From Candidatus Sumerlaeales bacterium (GTDB lineage Bacteria > Sumerlaeota > Sumerlaeia > Sumerlaeales > Sumerlaeaceae): 64,000 nucleotides of DNA. Below the pieces are notes generated by a model. The model was not told the DNA's origin. It saw only the letters and a program-made list of their open reading frames with translations, and made no database searches. This document shows, in pieces, positions 26,843-57,707 of the stretch. Both the position numbers and the translations under genes were made by a program. Each line of letters begins with the position of its first letter. Position 1 is the first letter of the stretch. The DNA lies in the NCBI GenBank assembly GCA_038243585.1, contig JBBSQY010000012.1:3314-67313 (forward strand), in the 5' to 3' direction.

Positions 26843-26898
26843 CGCAAAGAAGGAGAGGGTGCGGAGAGATCTTTCTCTCGCCTTTTACTTCTTTGCGT
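26843..26898. terminator. Hairpin between convergent rpsA and mutS (candidate bidirectional terminator; overlaps the mutS stop)
   Basis: The outer stem is CGCAAAGAAG (26843-52) / CTTCTTTGCG (26889-98). The inner stem is GAGAGA-tctt-TCTCTC. Confidence 0.4.
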
Positions 26899-29800
26899 CC
26901 TGCTTTAGCTCCGCCAGCACTGACAACGCCTGGAACGGCGTCAGGGCGTTGATCTCCAAAGCCCGAATCTTTTCCAGCACCGGATGATCCTGCAGATCAA
27001 AGAAGGTGAGCTGTACGGTTCGCTCCTCTACCCGTAACGAGGATTCCGGTTTCCCGCCGCCACTACCCGCTGCGCCGGTCTGTACGTGGATCGCATTTCC
27101 CTTTTCCAGGTCCGCCAGTATCCGCCGCGCCCGTTGCACCGCCGTCCGCGGCAGGCCCGCTACCTGCGCCGCGTAGATGCCATAGCTGTGATCCGTATGC
27201 CCGCGGAGAATCCGGTACAAAAAGGCGACCCGTTCCTCTTCCTCATGCACCGCCACGTTGTAATTTCGCACCCGCTCCAGCGGCCCCTCAAGGCCTGCTA
27301 GCTCATGATAATGGGTTGCGAACAGCGTCTTTGGTCTGCGCCCCGGCGTGTTATGCAGATATTCTACCACCGACCATGCGATGGACAGCCCGTCATAGGT
27401 GGAAGTGCCGCGCCCGATTTCGTCCAGAATCACCAGGCTGTTGTCCGTGGCGTTGTTCAGGATGTTAGCTGTCTCGCTCATCTCCACCAGGAACGTGGAT
27501 TGGCCCTTGGCGATCTGGTCCATGGCGCCCACCCGCGTAAAAATACGATCCACAGGCGCCATCCTCGCCTCCGTGGCCGGCACGAAACTACCGATGTGGG
27601 CCATTAGAGTGATCAGCGCGACCTGGCGGATATACGTGCTTTTACCCGCCATGTTCGGGCCGGTGATGATAAGAATCTGCTCCGCCACGTTGTCCAGCCG
27701 CGTATCGTTAGGGACAAATGGTGTCTCTGAGCGGAGGGTTTCCAGCACTGGGTGGCGGCCGTCGCGGATGATAATTTCGGATGGGGGTTGCGGACGGCTC
27801 GGCGAGCTATCCCTACCTTGATCTTCGACGGTCGGTCGCACATAGCGCCGCGCGCATGCGGTTACTGCGAACGAGTAAAGCGCGTCAAGCTGCGCTACCG
27901 CCTGGGCTGTGGCCTGTATCTGCCGGGCCTCCGCGCAAACCGCCGCCCGAAGCTCCTCGAAAAGTTTGAATTCCAGTTCGTTCGCACGCTCGTCCGCGTT
28001 GAGGATGACCTCTTCTTTTTCTTTCAGCTCCGGGGTCACATAGCGTTCGCCGCTGGTCAGTGTCTGCTTTCTGATCCATTCTGGCGGCACCTTGGCGACA
28101 TGGCTGTGGCTGACCTCCAGGTAATAGCCAAACACGCGGTTGAATCCGACTTTAAGATTATTGATGCCCGTGCGTTCCGCCTCGCGCTGGCGCAGGGCGG
28201 CAATCCATGATTTGCTGTCGCCGGTGAGGGAGCGCAGCTCGTCCAGTTCAGCGTTATAACCGGCGTTCAGCATTCCGCCGTCTCGAATAGAGAGCGGCGG
28301 TTGATCGGCAATGGCAGCATTTAGCCGGGCTGAAAGCGCTTCGAGCGGATTCATTTTTGCGGAAAGAACAGTAAGAAGATTTTTCTCGTTTACCGCTTGC
28401 TTTTGCGGGGAGATATCTCTTGTCTCAACGCGTTTGATGTAGTCATTTCTGATATGAGGTGAGTCATGGATATTTTGATCGGAATCGTCATCGTCGCCGC
28501 TATCGGCGGTCTCGGGTGGCTGGCCATTCGCAACAACAAAAGCACTGACGGAACCGTCGACCATCTCGACAAAACCAGCACCTTTGACTCCGACTATGGG
28601 GACAGTGGCGGCAGCGACGATTAAGTCTCGCATCGGCCCGATCCGCTGAAGGCTGTTTTTTAGCGAAAGCAGGTCTCGCCCGTTTGCCGACCCGCAGGAG
28701 CACCGGCTTACGATGCGTTCCATGTCGGCTATGCCCTTCAGCAGGGCGCCGATTTTCTCCCGCGCCTCGTGATTTATCACCAGCGAATCCACGGCGTCCA
28801 GTCGTTGGTTGATGCGAACGGAATCCCGCAGCGGCTGCAAAATCCATGTGCGCAGCATCCGGCCGCCCATGGGCGTCGCTGTGCGGTCCAGCACCTCGAA
28901 CAGCGTATGACGCCGCGAGGCGTCGGTCAAATTGGTCACCAGTTCCAGGCTGCGCTGCGTGGTGCCGTCCAGCACCATGTAATCGCCCGGGTGGTGCATC
29001 CGCACTTCGTTCACATGGATGAGCTGTCCGCGCTGAGTCTCGGCCAGGTACTGCAGGATCACTCCCGCCGCGCGCGTCGCCAGCACGCTTTCTTCCAGCC
29101 CAAAGCCGTGCAGGTCGCGGGTCCCGAAATGTTGAATCAGCGCCTGGCGTGCTGCGTAATGGGTCGCCCCTGATGGGTCGACCGTGGCCAGCGGCAACGT
29201 CTGCCCCCGCAGGTCGTTCGCGCCGCCGGGAGAATTGTCCAGCGACAGCGCAGCGATCACATCGCCGCCCTCGAACCAGTTCCGCTGATCAGAAGTCACC
29301 ACCACTTCGCTCGGGGATAACCGCACCAGTTCCGTAATGCACTCCGCTGCGCAATCCGCCGCCGAAAACTCACAAACAAGGAACTCGCCCGTGGAAAAAT
29401 CCAGCGCCGCCAGCCCCAACGCCGTGGCACGCTTATCCTCAGTGGTATCCGCGGCGATCAGCGCCACCAGGTAATTGTTCGCCTTGTCCGACAACAGCGA
29501 TTCTTCCAGCACGGTGCCGGGCGTGACCACCCGCACAACCTCGCGCCGCACCACGCCCTTCGCTGTCTTGGGGTTCTCTGTCTGCTCACACATGGCCACG
29601 CGATACCCGGCCCGGATCATCCGCGCCAGGTAGCCGTCCACGCTGTGATAAGGCACTCCCGCCAGCGGCACAGGGCTGCCGTCTATGTCTGTCCCGCGGC
29701 TTGTCAGCGTGATGCCCATTACTTCGGAACAGGTGCGCGCGTCCTCGAAAAACATCTCATAGAAATCGCCGCACCGGAAAAACAGCACGTGATCCGGGTG

Positions 29801-29902
29801 TTCCGCCTTAATCTGCTGATACTGACGCAGCAGCGGGGTCAATTCACCGACGCCGCTTTTGGCTGGTTTGGCTTTGGACGGCTCTTTTGATTGGTCTGTC
29901 AT
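26885..29902 (-). CDS. mutS: DNA mismatch repair protein MutS (unusually long, 1005 aa, with two insertions)
   Basis: The N-terminal mismatch-binding region is LTPLLRQYQQIKAEHPD..LFFRCGDFYEMF. Walker A is GPNMAGKSTYIRQ and Walker B is LVILDEIGRGTSTYDG. Confidence 0.9.
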   Translation of the reverse strand: MTDQSKEPSKAKPAKSGVGELTPLLRQYQQIKAEHPDHVLFFRCGDFYEMFFEDARTCSEVMGITLTSRGTDIDGSPVPLAGVPYHSVDGYLARMIRAGYRVAMCEQTENPKTAKGVVRREVVRVVTPGTVLEESLLSDKANNYLVALIAADTTEDKRATALGLAALDFSTGEFLVCEFSAADCAAECITELVRLSPSEVVVTSDQRNWFEGGDVIAALSLDNSPGGANDLRGQTLPLATVDPSGATHYAARQALIQHFGTRDLHGFGLEESVLATRAAGVILQYLAETQRGQLIHVNEVRMHHPGDYMVLDGTTQRSLELVTNLTDASRRHTLFEVLDRTATPMGGRMLRTWILQPLRDSVRINQRLDAVDSLVINHEAREKIGALLKGIADMERIVSRCSCGSANGRDLLSLKNSLQRIGPMRDLIVAAATVPIVGVKGAGFVEMVDGSVSAFVVANGQPPETADSGDDDDSDQNIHDSPHIRNDYIKRVETRDISPQKQAVNEKNLLTVLSAKMNPLEALSARLNAAIADQPPLSIRDGGMLNAGYNAELDELRSLTGDSKSWIAALRQREAERTGINNLKVGFNRVFGYYLEVSHSHVAKVPPEWIRKQTLTSGERYVTPELKEKEEVILNADERANELEFKLFEELRAAVCAEARQIQATAQAVAQLDALYSFAVTACARRYVRPTVEDQGRDSSPSRPQPPSEIIIRDGRHPVLETLRSETPFVPNDTRLDNVAEQILIITGPNMAGKSTYIRQVALITLMAHIGSFVPATEARMAPVDRIFTRVGAMDQIAKGQSTFLVEMSETANILNNATDNSLVILDEIGRGTSTYDGLSIAWSVVEYLHNTPGRRPKTLFATHYHELAGLEGPLERVRNYNVAVHEEEERVAFLYRILRGHTDHSYGIYAAQVAGLPRTAVQRARRILADLEKGNAIHVQTGAAGSGGGKPESSLRVEERTVQLTFFDLQDHPVLEKIRALEINALTPFQALSVLAELKQDAKK
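27792..27819 (+). repeat. Dispersed ~27 nt motif R1 (GGACGGCTCGGCGAGCYATCCCTACC), copy inside mutS
   Basis: ggacggctcggcgagctatccctacctt is read on the opposite strand, in frame, as GRDSSPSRP within MutS. Confidence 0.75.
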
Positions 29903-29954: not shown

Positions 29955-29981
29955 GGTAGGGATGGGCCGCCGAGCCGTACG
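29955..29981 (-). repeat. Motif R1, inverted copy in the mutS / amidotransferase intergenic region
   Basis: ggtagggatgggccgccgagccgtacg matches the reverse complement of R1 at about 24/27 by hand alignment. Confidence 0.55.
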
Positions 29982-33632: not shown

Positions 33633-35345
33633 ATGAGTGAAAATTTTGCATCTGTTCCGGGTGACCTAGGCGAACTTCCGAGCCAGGACGCGGGCATCGG
33701 AAACCTTTGGTATAAAGACGCTGTATTTTATGAAGTCCATGTTAGGGCGTTCGCAGACAGCAACGGCGACGGCATCGGCGACTTTAAAGGTCTAACCAGC
33801 AAGTTGGCCTATATCCGCGATTTGGGAGTCACCTGCATATGGCTGCTGCCCTTTTACCCGTCGCCTTTGCGGGACGACGGATATGATATTGCCGATTATT
33901 ACAATGTAAACCCGGACTATGGCACCATAGAAGACCTGGTGGAATTCCTGGATACGGCTCATCATATGGGTATTCGCGTTGTTGCGGACCTCGTAATGAA
34001 CCATACGAGTAGTGATTGCGAATGGTTTCAGGAGGCTCGACGGGATCCGGACTCGCCATACCGCGATTATTTCGTTTGGAGCGACGACCCTACGAAATAC
34101 GCCGACGCCCGTATTATTTTCTGCGACACGGAGGCCAGCAACTGGACTTTCGATCCCGTGGCGGGTCAACACTTCTGGCATCGCTTTTTCAGCCATCAGC
34201 CCGATCTGAATTATGAGAACCCGACCGTGCAGGAAGAGATGCTAAAGGCGCTGGACTTCTGGATGTCAAAGGGCCTGGACGGCTTCCGAGTGGACGCCAT
34301 TCCCTACCTGTTCGAAGAAGAAGGCACCAACTGCGAAAACCTTCCGAAAACCCATGAGTTCTGCAAACGCCTCCGTAAGCACTTCGACGAAAGATATCCA
34401 AACGGGCTTCTCCTGGCCGAAGCAAATCAGTGGCCTCAGGACGTGGTGGAGTATTTCGGCAAGGGCGATCAGTTTCATATGTGCTTCAATTTCCCGCTGA
34501 TGCCGCGCATGTTTATGGCTATCCGGCGGGAAGACGCGACCCCCATCATCGACATCATTCGTCAGCTGCCTCTAATTCCTGAGAACTGCCAGTGGGCAAC
34601 GTTTCTGCGCAATCATGATGAGCTGACGCTGGAAATGGTGACCGACGACGACCGCGATTATATGTGGAACGAATATGCCAGTGATCCCAGAATGCGCCTG
34701 AACCTGGGCATCCGTCGCCGCCTGTTCCCACTTATGGACAATGACCGTCGCCAGGTTGAACTGCTTCACAGCATGTTGTTTACCCTGCCAGGAAGCCCGA
34801 TTCTATATTACGGCGATGAACTGGGCATGGGAGACAATATTTTCCTCGGCGATCGCAACGGGGTTCGGACGCCGATGCAGTGGAGCAATGATCGGAATGC
34901 AGGATTCAGTCGCGCAAACCCGAGCCGTCTCTATAGCCAAGTCATTATCGATCCGTCTTATAACTACGAGGCCGTCAACGTGGAGAGCGCCATGGCGCTG
35001 CGGTCATCGTTTCTCAACTGGCTACGCCAAACCATCCAGATTCGCCAGAGCCACAAAGCCTTCAGCCGTGGGAAGGTCGAGTTTTTCGATAATCCTAACA
35101 AGAAGGTACTGGCCTATATGTGTCGGTACAAAGACGATCTCGCTCTTGTCGTAAACAATCTGTCCAGGTTCAGCCAGTTCGTGGAGCTTGATCTGTCTGC
35201 TTACGACGGCTACGAGCCTATCGATTTATTTGGTCATACCCGGTTTCCAACCATAGGCTCCATGAGTTACCTGCTTACGCTTGGCCCTTATGGTTTCTAC
35301 TGGTTCCGTCTGATTAAAAAGGAAGCGCCAGAGGTTTCAACTTGA
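33633..35345 (+). CDS. treS: Trehalose synthase (maltose alpha-D-glucosyltransferase), GH13
   Basis: [64 protein letters not shown] is the canonical TreS N-terminus. [11 protein letters not shown] and [11 protein letters not shown] are also present. Confidence 0.9.
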
Positions 35346-39851: not shown

Positions 39852-41306
39852 CTATACCTGATTAGGGATTTCAAAACCGGATCGATACGTTGTCGTCAAA
39901 AATGCGTTGGCCGCCGCTTCCTGCTCACCAGTAAATTTCTGGGCAGCCGGATCAAAAGTCAGCCATGGACCCAGCATACGCTGGTTCTTCTGAACGTCCA
40001 CGCCGTTTACCAGCAGATGCTCATTAAACTGATCGATCATTCTGCTCAACTGAGGAAATTCTGCGGCTGACTTCAAAATTTCCGCGCCGTTTGCCGGCTT
40101 GCCCAGTTTGTGGGAAATGTTGCCCATGTGCGCAAGTCCCGCCGCCAAATGTCCTGATTCGATATTGGCCGCCACTGTTTCCGCTTTGCGCGACCGCACG
40201 GCATCAATGAAATTCTGATGGTGAGATCCGCCCCCATCGCCCTTGAACTGCTTTACACGTTTGCCTTTATTATCGTAAACCCAGCCGCCGTTGTTGTAGG
40301 CCAGATAATAGCCTTCCTTGCCTTTGACTTCAATCCCCACTCGCAGGCCATTCAAGTTGTCGGCTTCGCTTGCGCCTTTCGATGCGGGCAGGTTCCGAAG
40401 CTCACAAAAGATCGGTACAGGTTTGTAATCATACAGGACCGTTTGAGTGTTGGGCGTCGGTGCGTCGTCATCAAACCCGAACCGTCCGCCTACGCTTACG
40501 ACTCGCGTAGGGAATTCCTTAATATCCAGAAACCACGATGCGAGGTCCATCATGTGTACCCCATTGTTTCCCAGTTCTCCGTTGCCGTAAGGCCAAAACC
40601 AGTGCCAGTCATAGTGCAGATTTTTTCGCGTCAGAGGCTCGTCTGGGGCTGGCCCAAGCCACAGGTTATAGTCCACTCCGGCGGGCGGCGCTTGCGGACC
40701 AGTTACCTTGGGCAGCGGCTGACGCAGGTTGTAGTAAATCCCCCGGATGTAATCCAGCTCGCCGATGTTGCCTTCTTTGATATACTGCCGCGCGCCCTGC
40801 AGGCCAGCGTCGGACCTGGACTGCATTCCTACCTGTACAATGCGGTTATGTTTTTTCGCCGCGGCAATCATCTGCTGACCTTCCCAGATCGTGTGAGATG
40901 CCGGCTTCTCCACGTAGACGTCTTTACCCGCCTCGCACGCCCAAACAGTCACCAGCGCATGCCAGTGATTCGGAGTGGCCACGCACACTGCGTCCACTTC
41001 CTTGTCTTCCAGAAGCCTGCGCACATCGGTGTATGTCTTCGGCTGCGTGCCTGCCTCTTTAAAATGTTTTTTTAGGGCTTCGGCCACGCGATTGCTATCG
41101 ACATCGCACAGCGCCACGACTCTCACGCCGGGCATTGACTTAAACATTGCCACATGCTGGCTGCCCTTATTGCCTACCCCCACCACGGCCACGCGGATGT
41201 CTTCGTTTGCGCCAAAAATACGCGCATGAGGTAAAATTGTAACGGCAGCGGTAAGTGCTGCTGCTTTTTTAAGAAACGCGCGACGCGTATAGGACTCTTC
41301 CACCAT
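39852..41306 (-). CDS. Gfo/Idh/MocA-family oxidoreductase with a Tat signal
   Basis: The twin-arginine leader is TRRAFLKKAAALTAAV and the Rossmann motif is IRVAVVGVGNKG. Confidence 0.8.
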   Translation of the reverse strand: MVEESYTRRAFLKKAAALTAAVTILPHARIFGANEDIRVAVVGVGNKGSQHVAMFKSMPGVRVVALCDVDSNRVAEALKKHFKEAGTQPKTYTDVRRLLEDKEVDAVCVATPNHWHALVTVWACEAGKDVYVEKPASHTIWEGQQMIAAAKKHNRIVQVGMQSRSDAGLQGARQYIKEGNIGELDYIRGIYYNLRQPLPKVTGPQAPPAGVDYNLWLGPAPDEPLTRKNLHYDWHWFWPYGNGELGNNGVHMMDLASWFLDIKEFPTRVVSVGGRFGFDDDAPTPNTQTVLYDYKPVPIFCELRNLPASKGASEADNLNGLRVGIEVKGKEGYYLAYNNGGWVYDNKGKRVKQFKGDGGGSHHQNFIDAVRSRKAETVAANIESGHLAAGLAHMGNISHKLGKPANGAEILKSAAEFPQLSRMIDQFNEHLLVNGVDVQKNQRMLGPWLTFDPAAQKFTGEQEAAANAFLTTTYRSGFEIPNQV

Positions 41307-41513
41307 GACAGTTCTCCGAAAGAAAATGAGGATGCATACAAAATCGCAAATGACGATTTACGCCAAGAACAATAGAAGCAAAGGCATGAAACTTAAGAAT
41401 CAACAGGAAACTTAAAACGGTTGGTTATAGGGCGCAACTCAGTTCCATGAAAACTGGCTTTAGCCGGAAATTCGTAGTCATAGGCGTTCGTGCATTTTGG
41501 GGCGGACGGCTCG

Positions 41514-41560
41514 GCGAGCGACGGACGGCTCGGCGAGCCATCCCTACCTTTGTGCATAAG
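41514..41560 (+). repeat. Motif R1, 1.5 tandem copies, intergenic
   Basis: ggacggctcggcgagc-gac-ggacggctcggcgagccatccctacctt. Confidence 0.75.
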
Positions 41561-41622: not shown

Positions 41623-43071
41623 GTGTTGACGAATTCAAGCCGCGGCGCCGGTCGCCTGTTGCTTCTGCTTTGCGTTTTAGTTTTTGCGCAGGTTGCCTGC
41701 GCAAAAGATGAGTACCGGGTCCTTTGGGTGGATCTGTTTCACGCTGGACTGCGGAGCCAGGCCGAGGCCGACACTATGCTTAAGACGGCGCGAGACGCGG
41801 GCTATAACACCGTTGTCATAGAAGTTCGCAAGGCCTGCGATGCTTATTATGAATCCAGCATTGAACCCAAAAACCCGGAGGTCCAGGCGGGTTTTGATCC
41901 GCTGGCGTATATTATTGAGCAGGCACACCGTGCCCCGCGCATGGAGGTTCATGCCTGGCTGGTCACCTATCGCGCGCGCATCAGCGGTGATTCCATGTGG
42001 AAAAATCCGGCTCATGTTTTTCAGCAGCATCCTGAATGGATCAGCGAGAAGAGCAACGGCACCAAGGTGGGCCCTAACAGCACCTACTTCCTCGATCCGG
42101 GCGTCCCGCAGGTAACTGATTATAACCTGACGGTGGTGCGGGATATCCTGTCACGTTACGACGTGGATGGAATCACGTTTGATTACCTACGCTATCCTGA
42201 CTATGACGGTGCCGGCAATGAATGGGGTTATAATCCCATTGCTCTTGCCAGGTTCAATAAGCTGTACGGGCGAACCGGAAAGCCGTCTGCTTCTGATCCG
42301 CAATTTTCTGAGTTTCGCAGAAAGCAGATCTCCGACCATACGAGAAAAATCTATGCCCATGTGCGGGCGTGGCGGCCGCGGGTGAAGATTGGCGCGGCGA
42401 CCATCACCTGGGGCGGGCTCAGTGAGAATTTCAAGGGAAGTTCCGCTTACTCCAACATCATGCAGGACTGGGAAACCATGGCGCTGGAGGGCTGGCTGGA
42501 CGTGATTATGCCCATGAATTACAAGCGGGAGGCCGTGGCAACACAGGCACGGGATCATAGAGAATGGGCGCATTTTCTTGCGGACCTGAGCGAGCGTTCG
42601 GGCCGAGCCGGCGTTAATATCGTGGATGGCGAAGAGCTCAATTCGTTGTCGGGCATCTTAACCCAGATCTCCGCGACCAGGTTTTTGCCGGGCATGGACG
42701 GCATCGCGACATATGCCTATGCGGAGCCCCGCGCCTCCAGTGGCAAGATTCCGGATTTGGAATTTTTCAACACTATCAGGCGCGACGTCTTTACGGGATG
42801 GGCCAATGTGCCGGAGGCGACGTGGCTGACGCGACCAGCGGAGGGCCTTATCAAAGGGGTCGTTTCCAAAGACGGGCTGCCGGTGGACGGCGCGACCGTG
42901 CAACTGGGCAACAGGTCCACTAGGACAGACGGCACGGGTTTTTACGCTTTTGCGCGAGTGCAGCCAGGCAACCAGACGGTTACGGCGCAGAACGGCGATG
43001 GGGCTATTGGAACAATAAAGGTCACAGTTCAGGCGGGCAAAGTGGCGGAAGCGCCGATCGGGAGCAAGTAA
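41623..43071 (+). CDS. Glycoside-hydrolase-like GHL10 (DUF187/YngK-type) protein with a C-terminal CarboxypepD_reg domain
   Basis: It has a signal peptide. The core includes YRVLWVD...AGYNTVVIEVRKACDAYYES..GFDPLAYIIEQAH..MEVHAWL. The C-terminal segment reads DGATVQLGNRSTRTDGTGFYAF. Confidence 0.7.
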   Translation: MLTNSSRGAGRLLLLLCVLVFAQVACAKDEYRVLWVDLFHAGLRSQAEADTMLKTARDAGYNTVVIEVRKACDAYYESSIEPKNPEVQAGFDPLAYIIEQAHRAPRMEVHAWLVTYRARISGDSMWKNPAHVFQQHPEWISEKSNGTKVGPNSTYFLDPGVPQVTDYNLTVVRDILSRYDVDGITFDYLRYPDYDGAGNEWGYNPIALARFNKLYGRTGKPSASDPQFSEFRRKQISDHTRKIYAHVRAWRPRVKIGAATITWGGLSENFKGSSAYSNIMQDWETMALEGWLDVIMPMNYKREAVATQARDHREWAHFLADLSERSGRAGVNIVDGEELNSLSGILTQISATRFLPGMDGIATYAYAEPRASSGKIPDLEFFNTIRRDVFTGWANVPEATWLTRPAEGLIKGVVSKDGLPVDGATVQLGNRSTRTDGTGFYAFARVQPGNQTVTAQNGDGAIGTIKVTVQAGKVAEAPIGSK

Positions 43072-48399: not shown

Positions 48400-49748
48400 A
48401 CGGTTGCAACTTTTCAGGCTTTTTCGTATCAATGCAGGTGTGTCGACAAGCCGCTACAACACTCTGCCTTGCTCTTGCGACAGCTTTTTCTCCAGCCCCG
48501 GCAACCGCTCAGCAGCCGACAACCACCACACAGGTGGCTGATACTCAAGATACGTCTACGGATTTTTTGAGTGATGACGGATGGCGCTCCCTTTCCCGGG
48601 AGCAGCGCCACGAGCGTTCGCGGCGCGCCATGATTGCCCGTTATATTCCTGACGGCAGTGCCCCAAAGGTTGAAGACCTTGACCGCTATGTGGAAAAATT
48701 TGGCGCTTTTACTGTTTACGATCCCCGCTATTATCTGTATAAAGTAACTGCGTCCCATGTGCCCGGCACCACCGGTTCTGTGGTACTCAGTGGTGAAAGT
48801 TATCCGCATCATTACGGCGCCGGAGTGCAAGATGCGCTGGAATCGCTGGGCTTCAATGTCACAGAAAACAAGGTGACAGCGCTGCCGAACCTGGCCGCCG
48901 GCCAGGCGCCTTACGGCATATCTACGACGAGTGCAGCCACCTTGCGGCGCGAACCCCGTGCCCGGGCCGAACAACTTAACAGTATCGCTCTTGGCGGTTG
49001 GATCCGCGTGTTACGTTCTGCCAATGATACAGACCTCTCCGCAGGAACAACGAGTTTCCGGCGTGGTCCGGGCGCTGACAAGCTTGAGAATGATATTCCC
49101 GGCGACTGGGTTCTTGCTCAAACTATGGAAGGTTATTTAGGATTTGCGCGCAAAGCGGACTTTGAAATGCGCGAGGACTACCAGCTTCCAGACGGAATTT
49201 TGACACTGCCACTGGCCGCGTCTGATGCCGCCACGACTTTGCCGGCGGGTGTATTTGTTTATGGCGATCCTCAAGCCGGATGGCGTTTATTTTCCGGGGA
49301 AAAACTTCCGGCCACGGCCAGGGTGTCTGATCTACGGTCCAATTTTACCGCCGAGCAGATTGAAGCGCTGATGAAACCGTTTATGGAAACCCGCTATGTA
49401 TGGGGCGGCGTGACGGACGAAGGAATTGATTGCAGCGGCTTTTCTCAGTTTTTTATGCGGACTGCCGGAGTGATGATTCCGCGCGACGCGGTCCAGCAGG
49501 CTACGGGCGGGCATATCGTGGCATGGGGCCAGGATGTTTTAAAAAAGGCGAAGCCGGGGGACCTGATTTTCTTTGCCACCGATTCCGGGCGAATCAACCA
49601 TGTTGCCGTCAGCCTGGGGAATGAACGTATTATACATTCCGCCGGCAAGGGTGTCCATTTGACGCGGCTGGATGAGCCTAAAGATTCTGACTCAGATGAA
49701 GCGTATGGCGGACGGGTGTTGTTTGCCAGGCGAATGGCGGCGCGGTAG
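48396..49748 (+). CDS. NlpC/P60 (C40) cell-wall peptidase with N-terminal SH3-like domains
   Basis: The C-terminal region YVWGGVTDEGIDCSGFSQFF...INHVAVSL...IIHS carries the Cys-His catalytic motifs. It has a signal peptide after the ATG at 48396, which overlaps the era stop as ATGA. Confidence 0.8.
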   Translation: MNGCNFSGFFVSMQVCRQAATTLCLALATAFSPAPATAQQPTTTTQVADTQDTSTDFLSDDGWRSLSREQRHERSRRAMIARYIPDGSAPKVEDLDRYVEKFGAFTVYDPRYYLYKVTASHVPGTTGSVVLSGESYPHHYGAGVQDALESLGFNVTENKVTALPNLAAGQAPYGISTTSAATLRREPRARAEQLNSIALGGWIRVLRSANDTDLSAGTTSFRRGPGADKLENDIPGDWVLAQTMEGYLGFARKADFEMREDYQLPDGILTLPLAASDAATTLPAGVFVYGDPQAGWRLFSGEKLPATARVSDLRSNFTAEQIEALMKPFMETRYVWGGVTDEGIDCSGFSQFFMRTAGVMIPRDAVQQATGGHIVAWGQDVLKKAKPGDLIFFATDSGRINHVAVSLGNERIIHSAGKGVHLTRLDEPKDSDSDEAYGGRVLFARRMAAR

Positions 49749-56136: not shown

Positions 56137-56381
56137 GCTCCAGATAATCTACAGGTGCACCTTTTAGCCGCATATTCCTATGAAAAAAAGCAACAAATAC
56201 CGCAGATTCTTTCGTTGGTGAATGTTTCGTAAATTAACATTACTCAGCTTGTCACGGAATTTGCCTGCAATTGTCCCGGTAAGCAACCTCATCTATTTCT
56301 TCCGCATTGAGAGTATCCGTGGCTTTCTTCTTCTCCTGGGATTTTAATAATTCCGTCGTCGACTCCAGGCATTTTCGCCTG

Positions 56382-57707
56382 ATGTTGCTTGCCGTATCTG
56401 GGCTCCTTTTGTTTTCTGGATGCAAAAGGGAACAATCTGCCCGTCCGGCACCGCCGCCGGCTGAGGTCGAGGTTTACGTGGCGAAGGCGACAAGTGTACC
56501 GCTGACCTTCGAGTATATCGGGCAAACCGAAGCCAGCCAGGAGGTAGACGTGCGTGCCCGGGTGCAGGGAGTGGTATGGGAGCAGGGCTTCTCAGAGGGA
56601 ACCTCTGTGACCGCAGGCCAGTTTCTGTATCGTATCGACCCGCGCCCATTTGAAGCTGATTTGCAGGTTGCCGATGCTCGGTCGTATCAAGCCAAGGTTG
56701 CCGTGCAGGCGGCTCAGCGCGACCTAAATCGAACCCGTTCTCTGACCGAGTCGGCAAGCATTGCCCGGGAGGAACTGGATGACGCTACCAGTCTTTACGA
56801 GACGTCTATGGCATCTTTGCGGCTGGCGGATGCGCAATTGCTTAAAGCAAGGCTTGAACTGAGCTTTACGACGGTTACGGCACCGGTTGGCGGCAGGATT
56901 GGTTTAGCTCTAAAGAGAGTAGGCGATCTGGTAGATACCGGCGAAAACAGTCTACTGTGTCGGATCACAACCCAGGACCCCATGTACGTCAATTTTTCTA
57001 TTAGTGAGAAAGACATGCTGGAGTATCGGAACAACCTGAAGGCTGGACGGATTGAAGCTCCTCAAACCGAAGATTTCATAGTTGAAATCGGTCTTTTGGA
57101 CAAAAGCACTTACCCCGAACGGGGACGTATTAACTTTTCTGATGTTACCATAGATCCTCGCACGGGCACGGGAACGCATCGGGCCGCGTTTCCAAACCCC
57201 GAGGGGCTGCTTCAGCCGGGCCAATATGTGGAAGTGCGCATCATCGGCGCTAACCGCACAAAAACAGTTATGGTTCCACAGGGCGCTGTGATGTTCGGAA
57301 TGCAGGGAAGCTATGTTTATGTGGTCGGCGATGACGATAAGGTAGAAATGAGACCGGTGACCGCGACAGACTGGGAAGGTCTTAATTGGATAATTGAAGA
57401 GGGTCTCGCTGCGGGAGAACAAATCATTATTTCAGGCATTAACAAGACGCAACCTGGCGCGGATGTCAGTGTGACCACGGTAACGACTGAACTTGATAAG
57501 GAAACTCCAGTTGCGGACAGCTCGAAGAGCCAAGGGATAACCCCCGCGGCGGACAGCTCGGCGAGCCGTCCCTACCCAAAAGACAGCAAGATGCCGGCCT
57601 CGCCGAGGGAAAAAGCTGAGGCTCAAGCCAGGGCGGCGGGAACAACGCAAACTGTGTCAGCCGAGACCTTGACAACCACCAAAAGTGCGTCGGCCGAGAC
57701 GGAATAA
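56382..57707 (+). CDS. RND efflux periplasmic adaptor (membrane fusion protein), lipoprotein
   Basis: The lipobox is LLLFSGC after ATG 56382. HlyD/AcrA-like motifs are present (PLTFEYIGQTEA, RIDPRPFEA, LELSFTTVTAPVGGRIG). The Ser/Ala/Thr-rich C-terminal tail contains motif R1. Confidence 0.85.
   Translation: MLLAVSGLLLFSGCKREQSARPAPPPAEVEVYVAKATSVPLTFEYIGQTEASQEVDVRARVQGVVWEQGFSEGTSVTAGQFLYRIDPRPFEADLQVADARSYQAKVAVQAAQRDLNRTRSLTESASIAREELDDATSLYETSMASLRLADAQLLKARLELSFTTVTAPVGGRIGLALKRVGDLVDTGENSLLCRITTQDPMYVNFSISEKDMLEYRNNLKAGRIEAPQTEDFIVEIGLLDKSTYPERGRINFSDVTIDPRTGTGTHRAAFPNPEGLLQPGQYVEVRIIGANRTKTVMVPQGAVMFGMQGSYVYVVGDDDKVEMRPVTATDWEGLNWIIEEGLAAGEQIIISGINKTQPGADVSVTTVTTELDKETPVADSSKSQGITPAADSSASRPYPKDSKMPASPREKAEAQARAAGTTQTVSAETLTTTKSASAETE
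57505..57577 (+). repeat. Motif R1, 1.5 diverged tandem copies inside the adaptor C-terminal tail
   Basis: ggacagctcgaagagcc...ggacagctcggcgagccgtccctaccc is translated in frame as ADSSKSQGITPAADSSASRPYP. Confidence 0.65.

Follow-up and report, generated by a model that had tools for sequence, protein, structure and literature searches.

An in-frame copy of a GTAG-type REP hairpin in the pre-ATPase loop of MutS from a Sumerlaeota genome, and its probable RAYT

The R1 copy in mutS

The DNA analyzed here is a stretch of 64,000 nucleotides from Candidatus Sumerlaeales bacterium (assembly GCA_038243585.1, contig JBBSQY010000012.1, positions 3,314 to 67,313), hereafter the window, which lies on contig C12 of a 3.43 Mb assembly of 99 contigs. 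It contains a mutS gene (26885..29902, minus strand), and the coding sequence of this gene includes, in frame, one copy of a short dispersed repeat, R1. The mutS gene was intact and encoded a protein of 1005 amino acids (P0001), which showed all five MutS Pfam domains and matched the E. coli MutS structures with an E value of about 1e-187. The R1 26-mer was GGACGGCTCGGCGAGC(C/T)ATCCCTACC, and the consensus motif in the genome was GGACGGCTCGGCGAGCCATCCCTACC. The copy in mutS (27791..27817, plus strand) consisted of a C followed by the 26-nt core (27792-27817), which matched the genome consensus at 25 of 26 bases (one mismatch) in addition to the conserved GC lead. The sense strand of mutS across R1 read GGTAGGGATAGCTCGCCGAGCCGTCC-G, and the 27 conserved nucleotides (27791-27817) corresponded to exactly nine codons, GRDSSPSRP, representing MutS residues 696-704. 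This peptide sits in the segment RPTVEDQGRDSSPSRPQPPSEIIIRDGRHPVLE (also written RPTVEDQGRDSSPSRPQPPSEIIIRDGRHPV), and the reading of it by an earlier inspection of the letters of the window, hereafter the original prediction, was confirmed on the coding strand.

The surroundings of the peptide were analyzed in an AlphaFold model of MutS, which was built on 48 homologs and had a mean predicted local distance difference test score (pLDDT) of 83.4 and a predicted template modeling score (pTM) of 0.81. In this model, residues 693-708 formed a coil that joined the last helix of the core domain (659-685) to the first ATPase-domain strand (709-715). The pLDDT of the loop block was 71-73, compared with 95-97 in its flanks. 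The invariant positions of the MutS alignment, all of which are present in P0001 by construction of the list, included the Walker A motif GPNMAGKST.

When the loop was compared with those of other organisms, it was 12 residues longer than that of E. coli MutS (12 gap positions in the alignment), in agreement with the difference of about 12 residues given in the original prediction. Loop length varied from 7 to 25 residues among 20 relatives, and the loops of many relatives were variable in sequence and rich in small and polar residues. The relatives' loops were unrelated in sequence, ranging from 4-9 residues shorter to 7 residues longer, and in the two same-genus genomes the loop was 9 (G001) and 4 (G002) residues shorter. 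The nearest database relative was P0002, with 91% identity in the protein and about 84% identity in the DNA. The MutS homologs bore names that assign the present genome to Sumerlaeota (BRC1), family Sumerlaeaceae.

The original prediction had proposed an in-frame insertion of about 36 nt just N-terminal to the ATPase domain. The presence of a dispersed repeat in frame in an intact mutS, N-terminal to the ATPase domain, was borne out, and the structural model placed it in a coil loop; the idea of a clean and simple insertion was not, since the loop is hypervariable. The size also had to be corrected, because the element is 27-28 nt and R1 contributes 27 nt, and the remaining length difference from E. 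coli MutS is ordinary variability of the loop. The alignment of orthologs that had been suggested for delimiting the insertion was run and gave no clean boundary at mutS, because the loop has diverged too far; relatives without the motif did not share the extra residues. The R1 copy is plainly a recent arrival that is foreign to this loop, and it may have overwritten part of the native loop, not simply extended it.

Another variable region of MutS was present in domain III. The 66-residue segment at residues 440-505 (window 28388-28585) was predicted to be disordered (pLDDT about 33) and was rich in acidic residues. It was largely missing from P0002 (942 amino acids), and its length varied widely among MutS proteins of Sumerlaeaceae.

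The R1 family and the RAYT gene on contig C27

The window contained four R1 copies, and 86 copies were found in the genome at up to 5 mismatches, distributed over 38 of the 99 contigs. There was no match in the reversed-genome control at up to 5 mismatches, nor in 100 dinucleotide-preserving shuffles of the window. The copies were highly similar: 46 of the 86 had at most one mismatch (26 exact and 20 with one mismatch). A position count over the 86 copies showed that the ends of R1 were sharp, with C at base -1 in 74 copies and G at base -2 in 57, each position of the CTACC tail (reverse complement GGTAG) kept in 78-82 copies, and conservation dropping off immediately beyond the (G)C lead and core. 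The reverse complement of R1 can be written as G-GTAG-GGATGGCTC-GCC-GAGCCGTCC, which consists of a GTAG head, a 9-bp stem, and a 3-nt loop. On the GTAG strand, folding of the 26-nt core reached -7.5 kcal/mol (z = -2.5) with the help of a G-T pair, compared with -5.2 kcal/mol on the opposite strand, and compensatory variants of the stem arms occurred both in this genome and in G031. In the mutS copy, the single C-to-T change in the core reduced the stem from -7.5 to -2.9 kcal/mol, which was no better than shuffled sequence; the same variant was present in one R1 copy of a secretion ATPase gene. The 27-nt unit was free of stop codons in five of the six frames, the lone stop being a TAG in one reverse frame.

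The 86 copies were arranged at 62 loci, comprising 45 singletons and 17 local clusters, nearly all of the latter in head-to-tail order with conserved spacers. Most copies lay outside genes, either without a long spanning open reading frame (ORF) or at the extreme N terminus of an ORF. R1 is a short imperfect palindrome with a GTAG end and many dispersed copies that lie mostly between genes, that is, a repetitive extragenic palindrome (REP) of the GTAG type. An Rfam search gave no match in the window, in the transposase locus described below, or in the ~400-nt repeat described at the end of this section. An inverted REP doublet (REPIN) was rejected as the mobile unit, given only 2 inverted neighbor pairs versus 22 direct pairs and 45 singletons.

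A gene for a REP-associated tyrosine transposase (RAYT) of 161 amino acids was found at G000:C27:22415-22897 (minus strand). The protein scored 97.9 bits against NCBIfam NF047646 (REP-associated tyrosine transposase; cut-off 80) and aligned with the E. coli TnpA-REP structure (PDB ID: 4ER8; E = 2.9e-12) across both the HUH (PDHIHGLF) and the tyrosine (ADYIIQNPV) motifs, whereas its score against Pfam Y1_Tnp, 19.4 bits, was under the cut-off of 23. Four R1 copies surrounded the gene on contig C27, at 22120(-), 22290(+), 22391(+), and 23039(+); the two REPs nearest to it were in direct orientation, and the stop codon of the RAYT was the TAG of a REP head. Of the eight Y1 transposase matches obtained for the genome, the RAYT was the weakest and the sole one surrounded by R1. 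Four strong IS200-like Y1 genes (75-84 bits to PF01797), at C62:15368-15697, C28:40980-41315, C16:55219-55554, and C67:11620-11961, had no associated R1 copies. The gene adjoining the RAYT had 70% identical orthologs in both same-genus relatives, and the gene order downstream of the RAYT was conserved in G001, G002, and G009; therefore, contig C27 belongs to this organism. The upstream neighbors differed in these three genomes, so that they gave no clean comparison for an empty RAYT site. Since R1 has the published layout of GTAG-REPs (PMC3733652) and flanks a RAYT, we regard it as a REP with its own RAYT, and judging from these sequence relationships the protein encoded on C27 is most likely the cognate enzyme of R1.

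A longer repeat was associated with some R1 copies elsewhere in the genome. It was ~400-490 nt long and present in seven copies outside the window (C15:~48890-49290, C17:~34070-34470, C20, C33, C41, C47, and C66), five of which aligned over 350-500 nt with 83-89% identity, whereas those on C20 and C41 shared the last ~130 nt only. The end of this repeat (...GGGTACTTAAATGAGATTTTG...GGCGAGC) led directly into an R1 copy or array, and the repeat contained no long ORF.

Other host genes and distribution of R1

In-frame copies were not restricted to mutS. Fifteen R1 copies at about 13 loci, mutS being one of them, were located inside long ORFs and away from the N terminus. Besides mutS, eight host genes were confirmed by Pfam. 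Three of these carried two copies each: a DnaE-like polymerase III alpha subunit (separate copies), a type II/IV secretion (T2SSE-family) ATPase (tandem copies), and WecB, a UDP-GlcNAc 2-epimerase (tandem copies). The others were CysS, ArgS, a family-2 (GT2) glycosyltransferase, a heparinase-like protein, and the tail of an HlyD-type efflux adaptor. A more degenerate copy was present in an ORF read as Mfd from the ORF sequence, this gene being outside the Pfam scan. Every compared ortholog of WecB and of the T2SSE ATPase showed a clean gap of 16-22 residues at the REP peptide. All 13 intragenic loci were read in three of the five open frames, giving the peptides GRDGSPSRP, GRLGEPSLP, and DGSASHPYP; by our own arithmetic, the chance of such a bias is (3/5)^13, or about 0.001. 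The intragenic copies did not differ from the other copies in number of mismatches (p = 0.89) or in folding energy (p = 0.42).

The genome census that the original prediction had called for extended it. The dispersed motif that it had placed in mutS, at 29955, and in the 41514 region was found at 27792, at 29955, and at 41523 together with a half copy, and the copy at 57551 was added; the identity of R1 as a GTAG-REP, the RAYT, and the set of about 13 intragenic loci were absent from the earlier reading, which was incomplete in these respects. In the window, a degenerate copy with 3 mismatches occupied 29955..29980 (minus strand) in a divergent intergenic region, 53 nt upstream of the mutS start codon. 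A pair of copies at 41506..41548 (plus strand), consisting of a half copy (41506-41521) and then an exact copy (41523-41548), lay in the intergenic DNA between the divergent ORFs 39852..41306 (minus strand) and 41623..43071 (plus strand). A second pair at 57514..57576 (plus strand), in which a copy with 2 mismatches (57551-57576) came after a degenerate one, was located inside the efflux membrane-fusion ORF at 56307..57707, which had the Pfam domains HlyD_D23 and HlyD_3. Both of these copies were in frame and encoded ADSSKSQGI...ADSSASRPYP in the C-terminal tail of the protein.

Two details of the intragenic copies concerned particular sites. The DnaE-like ORF (G000:C2, 1188 amino acids) had R1 at C2:30092 and C2:31028, which encoded CRDGSPSRP between the NTPase and finger domains and GRDGSPSRP in the HhH domain; relatives carried a second DnaE-like paralog of about 35% identity. 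Near-consensus copies with the stem-weakening variant GAGCTATCC were found at two sites only, G000:C45:5023 and window 27792, both intragenic and in the same frame. At both sites the variant changes GRDGSPSRP into GRDSSPSRP, which could be the mark of a subfamily or a coincidence.

In contrast to its abundance in this genome, the R1 22-mer was absent, at up to 2 mismatches, from the 17 relatives tested, including both same-genus genomes. No RAYT ortholog was present in 30 relatives, in which the best matches were 28-38% identical fragments of other Y1 proteins. The exact 26-mer was found in more than 117 contigs assigned to Verrucomicrobiota, Lentisphaerae, Kiritimatiellales, Planctomycetota, Acidobacteriota, Rhodothermales, and others. 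RAYTs 52% and 44% identical to that on C27 were encoded in a genome of Verrucomicrobiota and in an unclassified one (loci L082 and L038), where the same 26-mer bracketed them in the same arrangement; these genomes had 26 and 34 R1 copies, and the controls gave 0. These informative homologs were recovered from loci that had been identified through R1, whereas a search for RAYT relatives by peptide words in genome contigs gave one weak match. Because the repeat and the RAYT were absent from relatives, whereas the identical 26-mer occurred with a RAYT in other phyla, the simplest reading is that the RAYT/REP pair was acquired horizontally and that a recent burst of copies followed. Among R1 copies in other phyla (loci L030-L146), 18 of 131 lay in stop-free frames of at least 300 codons, which are putative ORFs, and all five open frames were represented. 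The frame bias in the present genome is suggestive only, since the putative long ORFs in other phyla use the remaining two frames as well.

Origin of the mutS copy and alternative explanations

From these results, we consider it very probable that R1 is a GTAG-REP that spread with its own RAYT after horizontal gain, and that the copy in mutS has been tolerated in frame in a loop. The RAYT-repeat pair would have entered the lineage from elsewhere, and a single REP unit would then have multiplied to about 86 copies. The RAYTs studied so far attach to folded REPs in single-stranded DNA and carry out cleavage and rejoining beside the GTAG (PMC3333891, PMC3479197, PMC8266576); the spread of REPs is still called poorly understood (PMC8266576). 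By analogy with those proteins, the RAYT on C27, an HUH/Y1 enzyme, would act on folded R1 in single-stranded DNA near the GTAG, and we infer that it may have mobilized the R1 copies by such a single-strand mechanism. The mobile unit would be the single REP and not the REPIN doublet, with local tandem duplication adding to the arrays. As the 27-nt unit is frame-neutral and mostly stop-free, in-frame copies could persist in tolerant surface loops or linkers, and selection would remove only those that hit structured or functional parts of a protein. In mutS, the copy would add, or partly replace, nine residues in the hypervariable pre-ATPase loop while MutS stays intact, and it is most likely a neutral passenger, not a functional module.

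Several observations weigh against this explanation. P0002 read AVGAQAAGESEGAS at the R1 site, which is an unrelated sequence and 4 residues shorter, and an empty-site allele of mutS was not found among the 20 relatives, the 13 best database matches, and the DNA of the nearest relative. Because the loop of the nearest relative is unrelated and only 4 residues shorter, insertion and partial replacement at mutS are indistinguishable. CysS and both DnaE sites were likewise hypervariable linkers in which the relatives' loops were of similar length and there was no clean gap. The conserved element could be 28 nt long instead of 27, in which case it would not by itself be frame-neutral. With respect to the enzyme, four further strong Y1 transposase genes are present in the genome, contig C27 was the most atypical in tetranucleotide composition among the 56 contigs longer than 20 kb, and the proposed link between RAYT and R1 is drawn from adjacency and from homology to studied enzymes.

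The four strong Y1_Tnp genes would be candidate agents if R1 had spread without the RAYT on C27, that is, by another IS200/IS605-type Y1 transposase, or by local duplication or recombination, the RAYT being a mere neighbor. The 17 local arrays among the 62 loci, which resemble tandem duplication and not transposition, also fit such a process. However, none of the other Y1 genes is near an R1 copy, R1 brackets the NF047646-type RAYT alone, and this pairing recurs in two other genomes with RAYTs of 44-52% identity; in addition, the 45 sharp-ended singletons need a dispersal step. We therefore regard spread without this RAYT as unlikely. That the match in mutS is a coincidence, with a low-complexity loop rich in Gly, Ser, and Pro happening to resemble R1, draws on the variable loops of relatives with their small and polar residues, but it has to face an agreement of 25 of 26 bases plus the GC lead, the complete absence of matches in the 100 shuffles of the window and in the reversed genome, and the unrelated loop sequences of relatives that are free of the repeat. 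The coincidence is effectively refuted by these controls and comparisons, and we give it next to no credence; the motif was highly repeated, and the residues were not shared by relatives lacking it.

A different possibility is that the REPs in and upstream of mutS are functional, the hairpin either tuning mutS expression as RNA or DNA or serving as a RAYT-addressable site at which mismatch repair could be turned off and on through cutting, excision, or deletion, as in a contingency mutator locus. The two copies at mutS, one coding and the other 53 nt before the start codon, would suit this role, and 3 of the about 13 intragenic loci belong to replication or repair (mutS, the dnaE-like gene, and mfd, the last from its ORF sequence alone), in parallel with the published enrichment in replication and repair genes (PMC3733652). 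In contrast, the mutS copy has a substitution that makes its stem less stable (-2.9 instead of -7.5 kcal/mol), the intragenic copies equal the others in divergence and hairpin energy, and the hosts differ widely in function, with a glycosyltransferase, an epimerase, and an efflux adaptor among them, as expected if R1 lands wherever it is tolerated. A functional role at mutS is accordingly improbable. A wider proposal would treat the nine-codon unit, open in five of six frames, as an adaptation to surviving in genes, and the landings in mutS and its leader, twice in the dnaE-like gene, and in mfd as targeting, with RAYT-addressable hairpins modulating the mutation rate and a pair that recently jumped into the lineage, its hairpin identical across several phyla; taken jointly, these claims have a small probability of being true.

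A GTAG-REP with a horizontally gained RAYT, the explanation that we favor, resembles the GTAG-REP/RAYT systems known as REPtrons (PMC3733652; Nunvar 2010, PMC2817692; Ton-Hoang 2012, PMC3333891; Messing 2012, PMC3479197; Corneloup 2021, PMC8266576). Like those REPs, R1 is an imperfect palindrome in the range of 20-40 nt with a GTAG end, G-T pairs in the stem, and tens of copies; it flanks a RAYT, and the TAG of a REP provides a stop codon, as was also described for adjacent genes in PMC3733652. A minority of in-frame copies, notably in replication/repair and tRNA synthetase genes, is likewise shared. Intragenic GTAG-REPs were described in 2013 (Di Nocera, De Gregorio and Rocco 2013, PMC3733652); many of them lay in replication/repair and tRNA synthetase genes, and they were most numerous in Opitutus terrae. 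The list of intragenic REPs in that paper, which is a list and not a set of family consensus sequences, contains no R1 sequence, no SPSRP or GEPSLP peptide, and no MutS host, and the phylum Sumerlaeota (BRC1) lies outside its coverage. Accordingly, intragenic REPs are already known, and what is new here is MutS as a host gene, Sumerlaeota as a host phylum, and a REP/RAYT pair shared across phyla. R1 also occurs mostly as singletons and head-to-tail arrays, whereas in Proteobacteria the typical arrangement is the inverted dimer (BIME or REPIN).

Other mobile elements show partial likeness to R1. The IS200/IS605 elements, with the Y1 transposase TnpA and subterminal hairpins, share with the R1 RAYT the HUH/Y1 fold and the recognition of hairpins on single strands; they differ in that R1 is free of genes and consists of one hairpin instead of two element ends. 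Among the Rickettsia palindromic elements (RPE), RPE-1 is about 100-150 bp and is not known to have a transposase, whereas R1 is 27 nt with a probable cognate RAYT. According to the account of RPE given in PMC3733652, these elements are, like R1, palindromic and in frame in functional genes, where surface-exposed segments tolerate them (Ogata et al. 2000, as cited in PMC3733652).

With the present results, MutS and Sumerlaeota join the core proteins and phyla that tolerate REP-encoded loops. The near-identical copies, the single 27-nt hairpin unit, the probable cognate transposase, and the same-genus relatives free of both repeat and transposase look like a young invasion, and the genome offers a good natural setting in which to study the nature of the mobile unit and the sites that it can enter. 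The presence of the same REP/RAYT pair in other phyla suggests that this pair moves horizontally. For annotation, R1 explains the peptides GRDGSPSRP, GRLGEPSLP, and DGSASHPYP that recur in proteins of this genome.

The pre-ATPase loop of MutS contained a different palindrome in one relative of the same class (L014, G017:C85:58231-58251). Its 25-residue loop holds a perfect 8-bp palindrome, CATCGGCA-TCC-TGCCGATG, for which three further matches were found in that genome at 3 mismatches, two of them with compensatory changes in the stem, whereas the controls gave 0. Judged by these few matches, a different hairpin repeat may have entered the same MutS loop independently in the L014 lineage.

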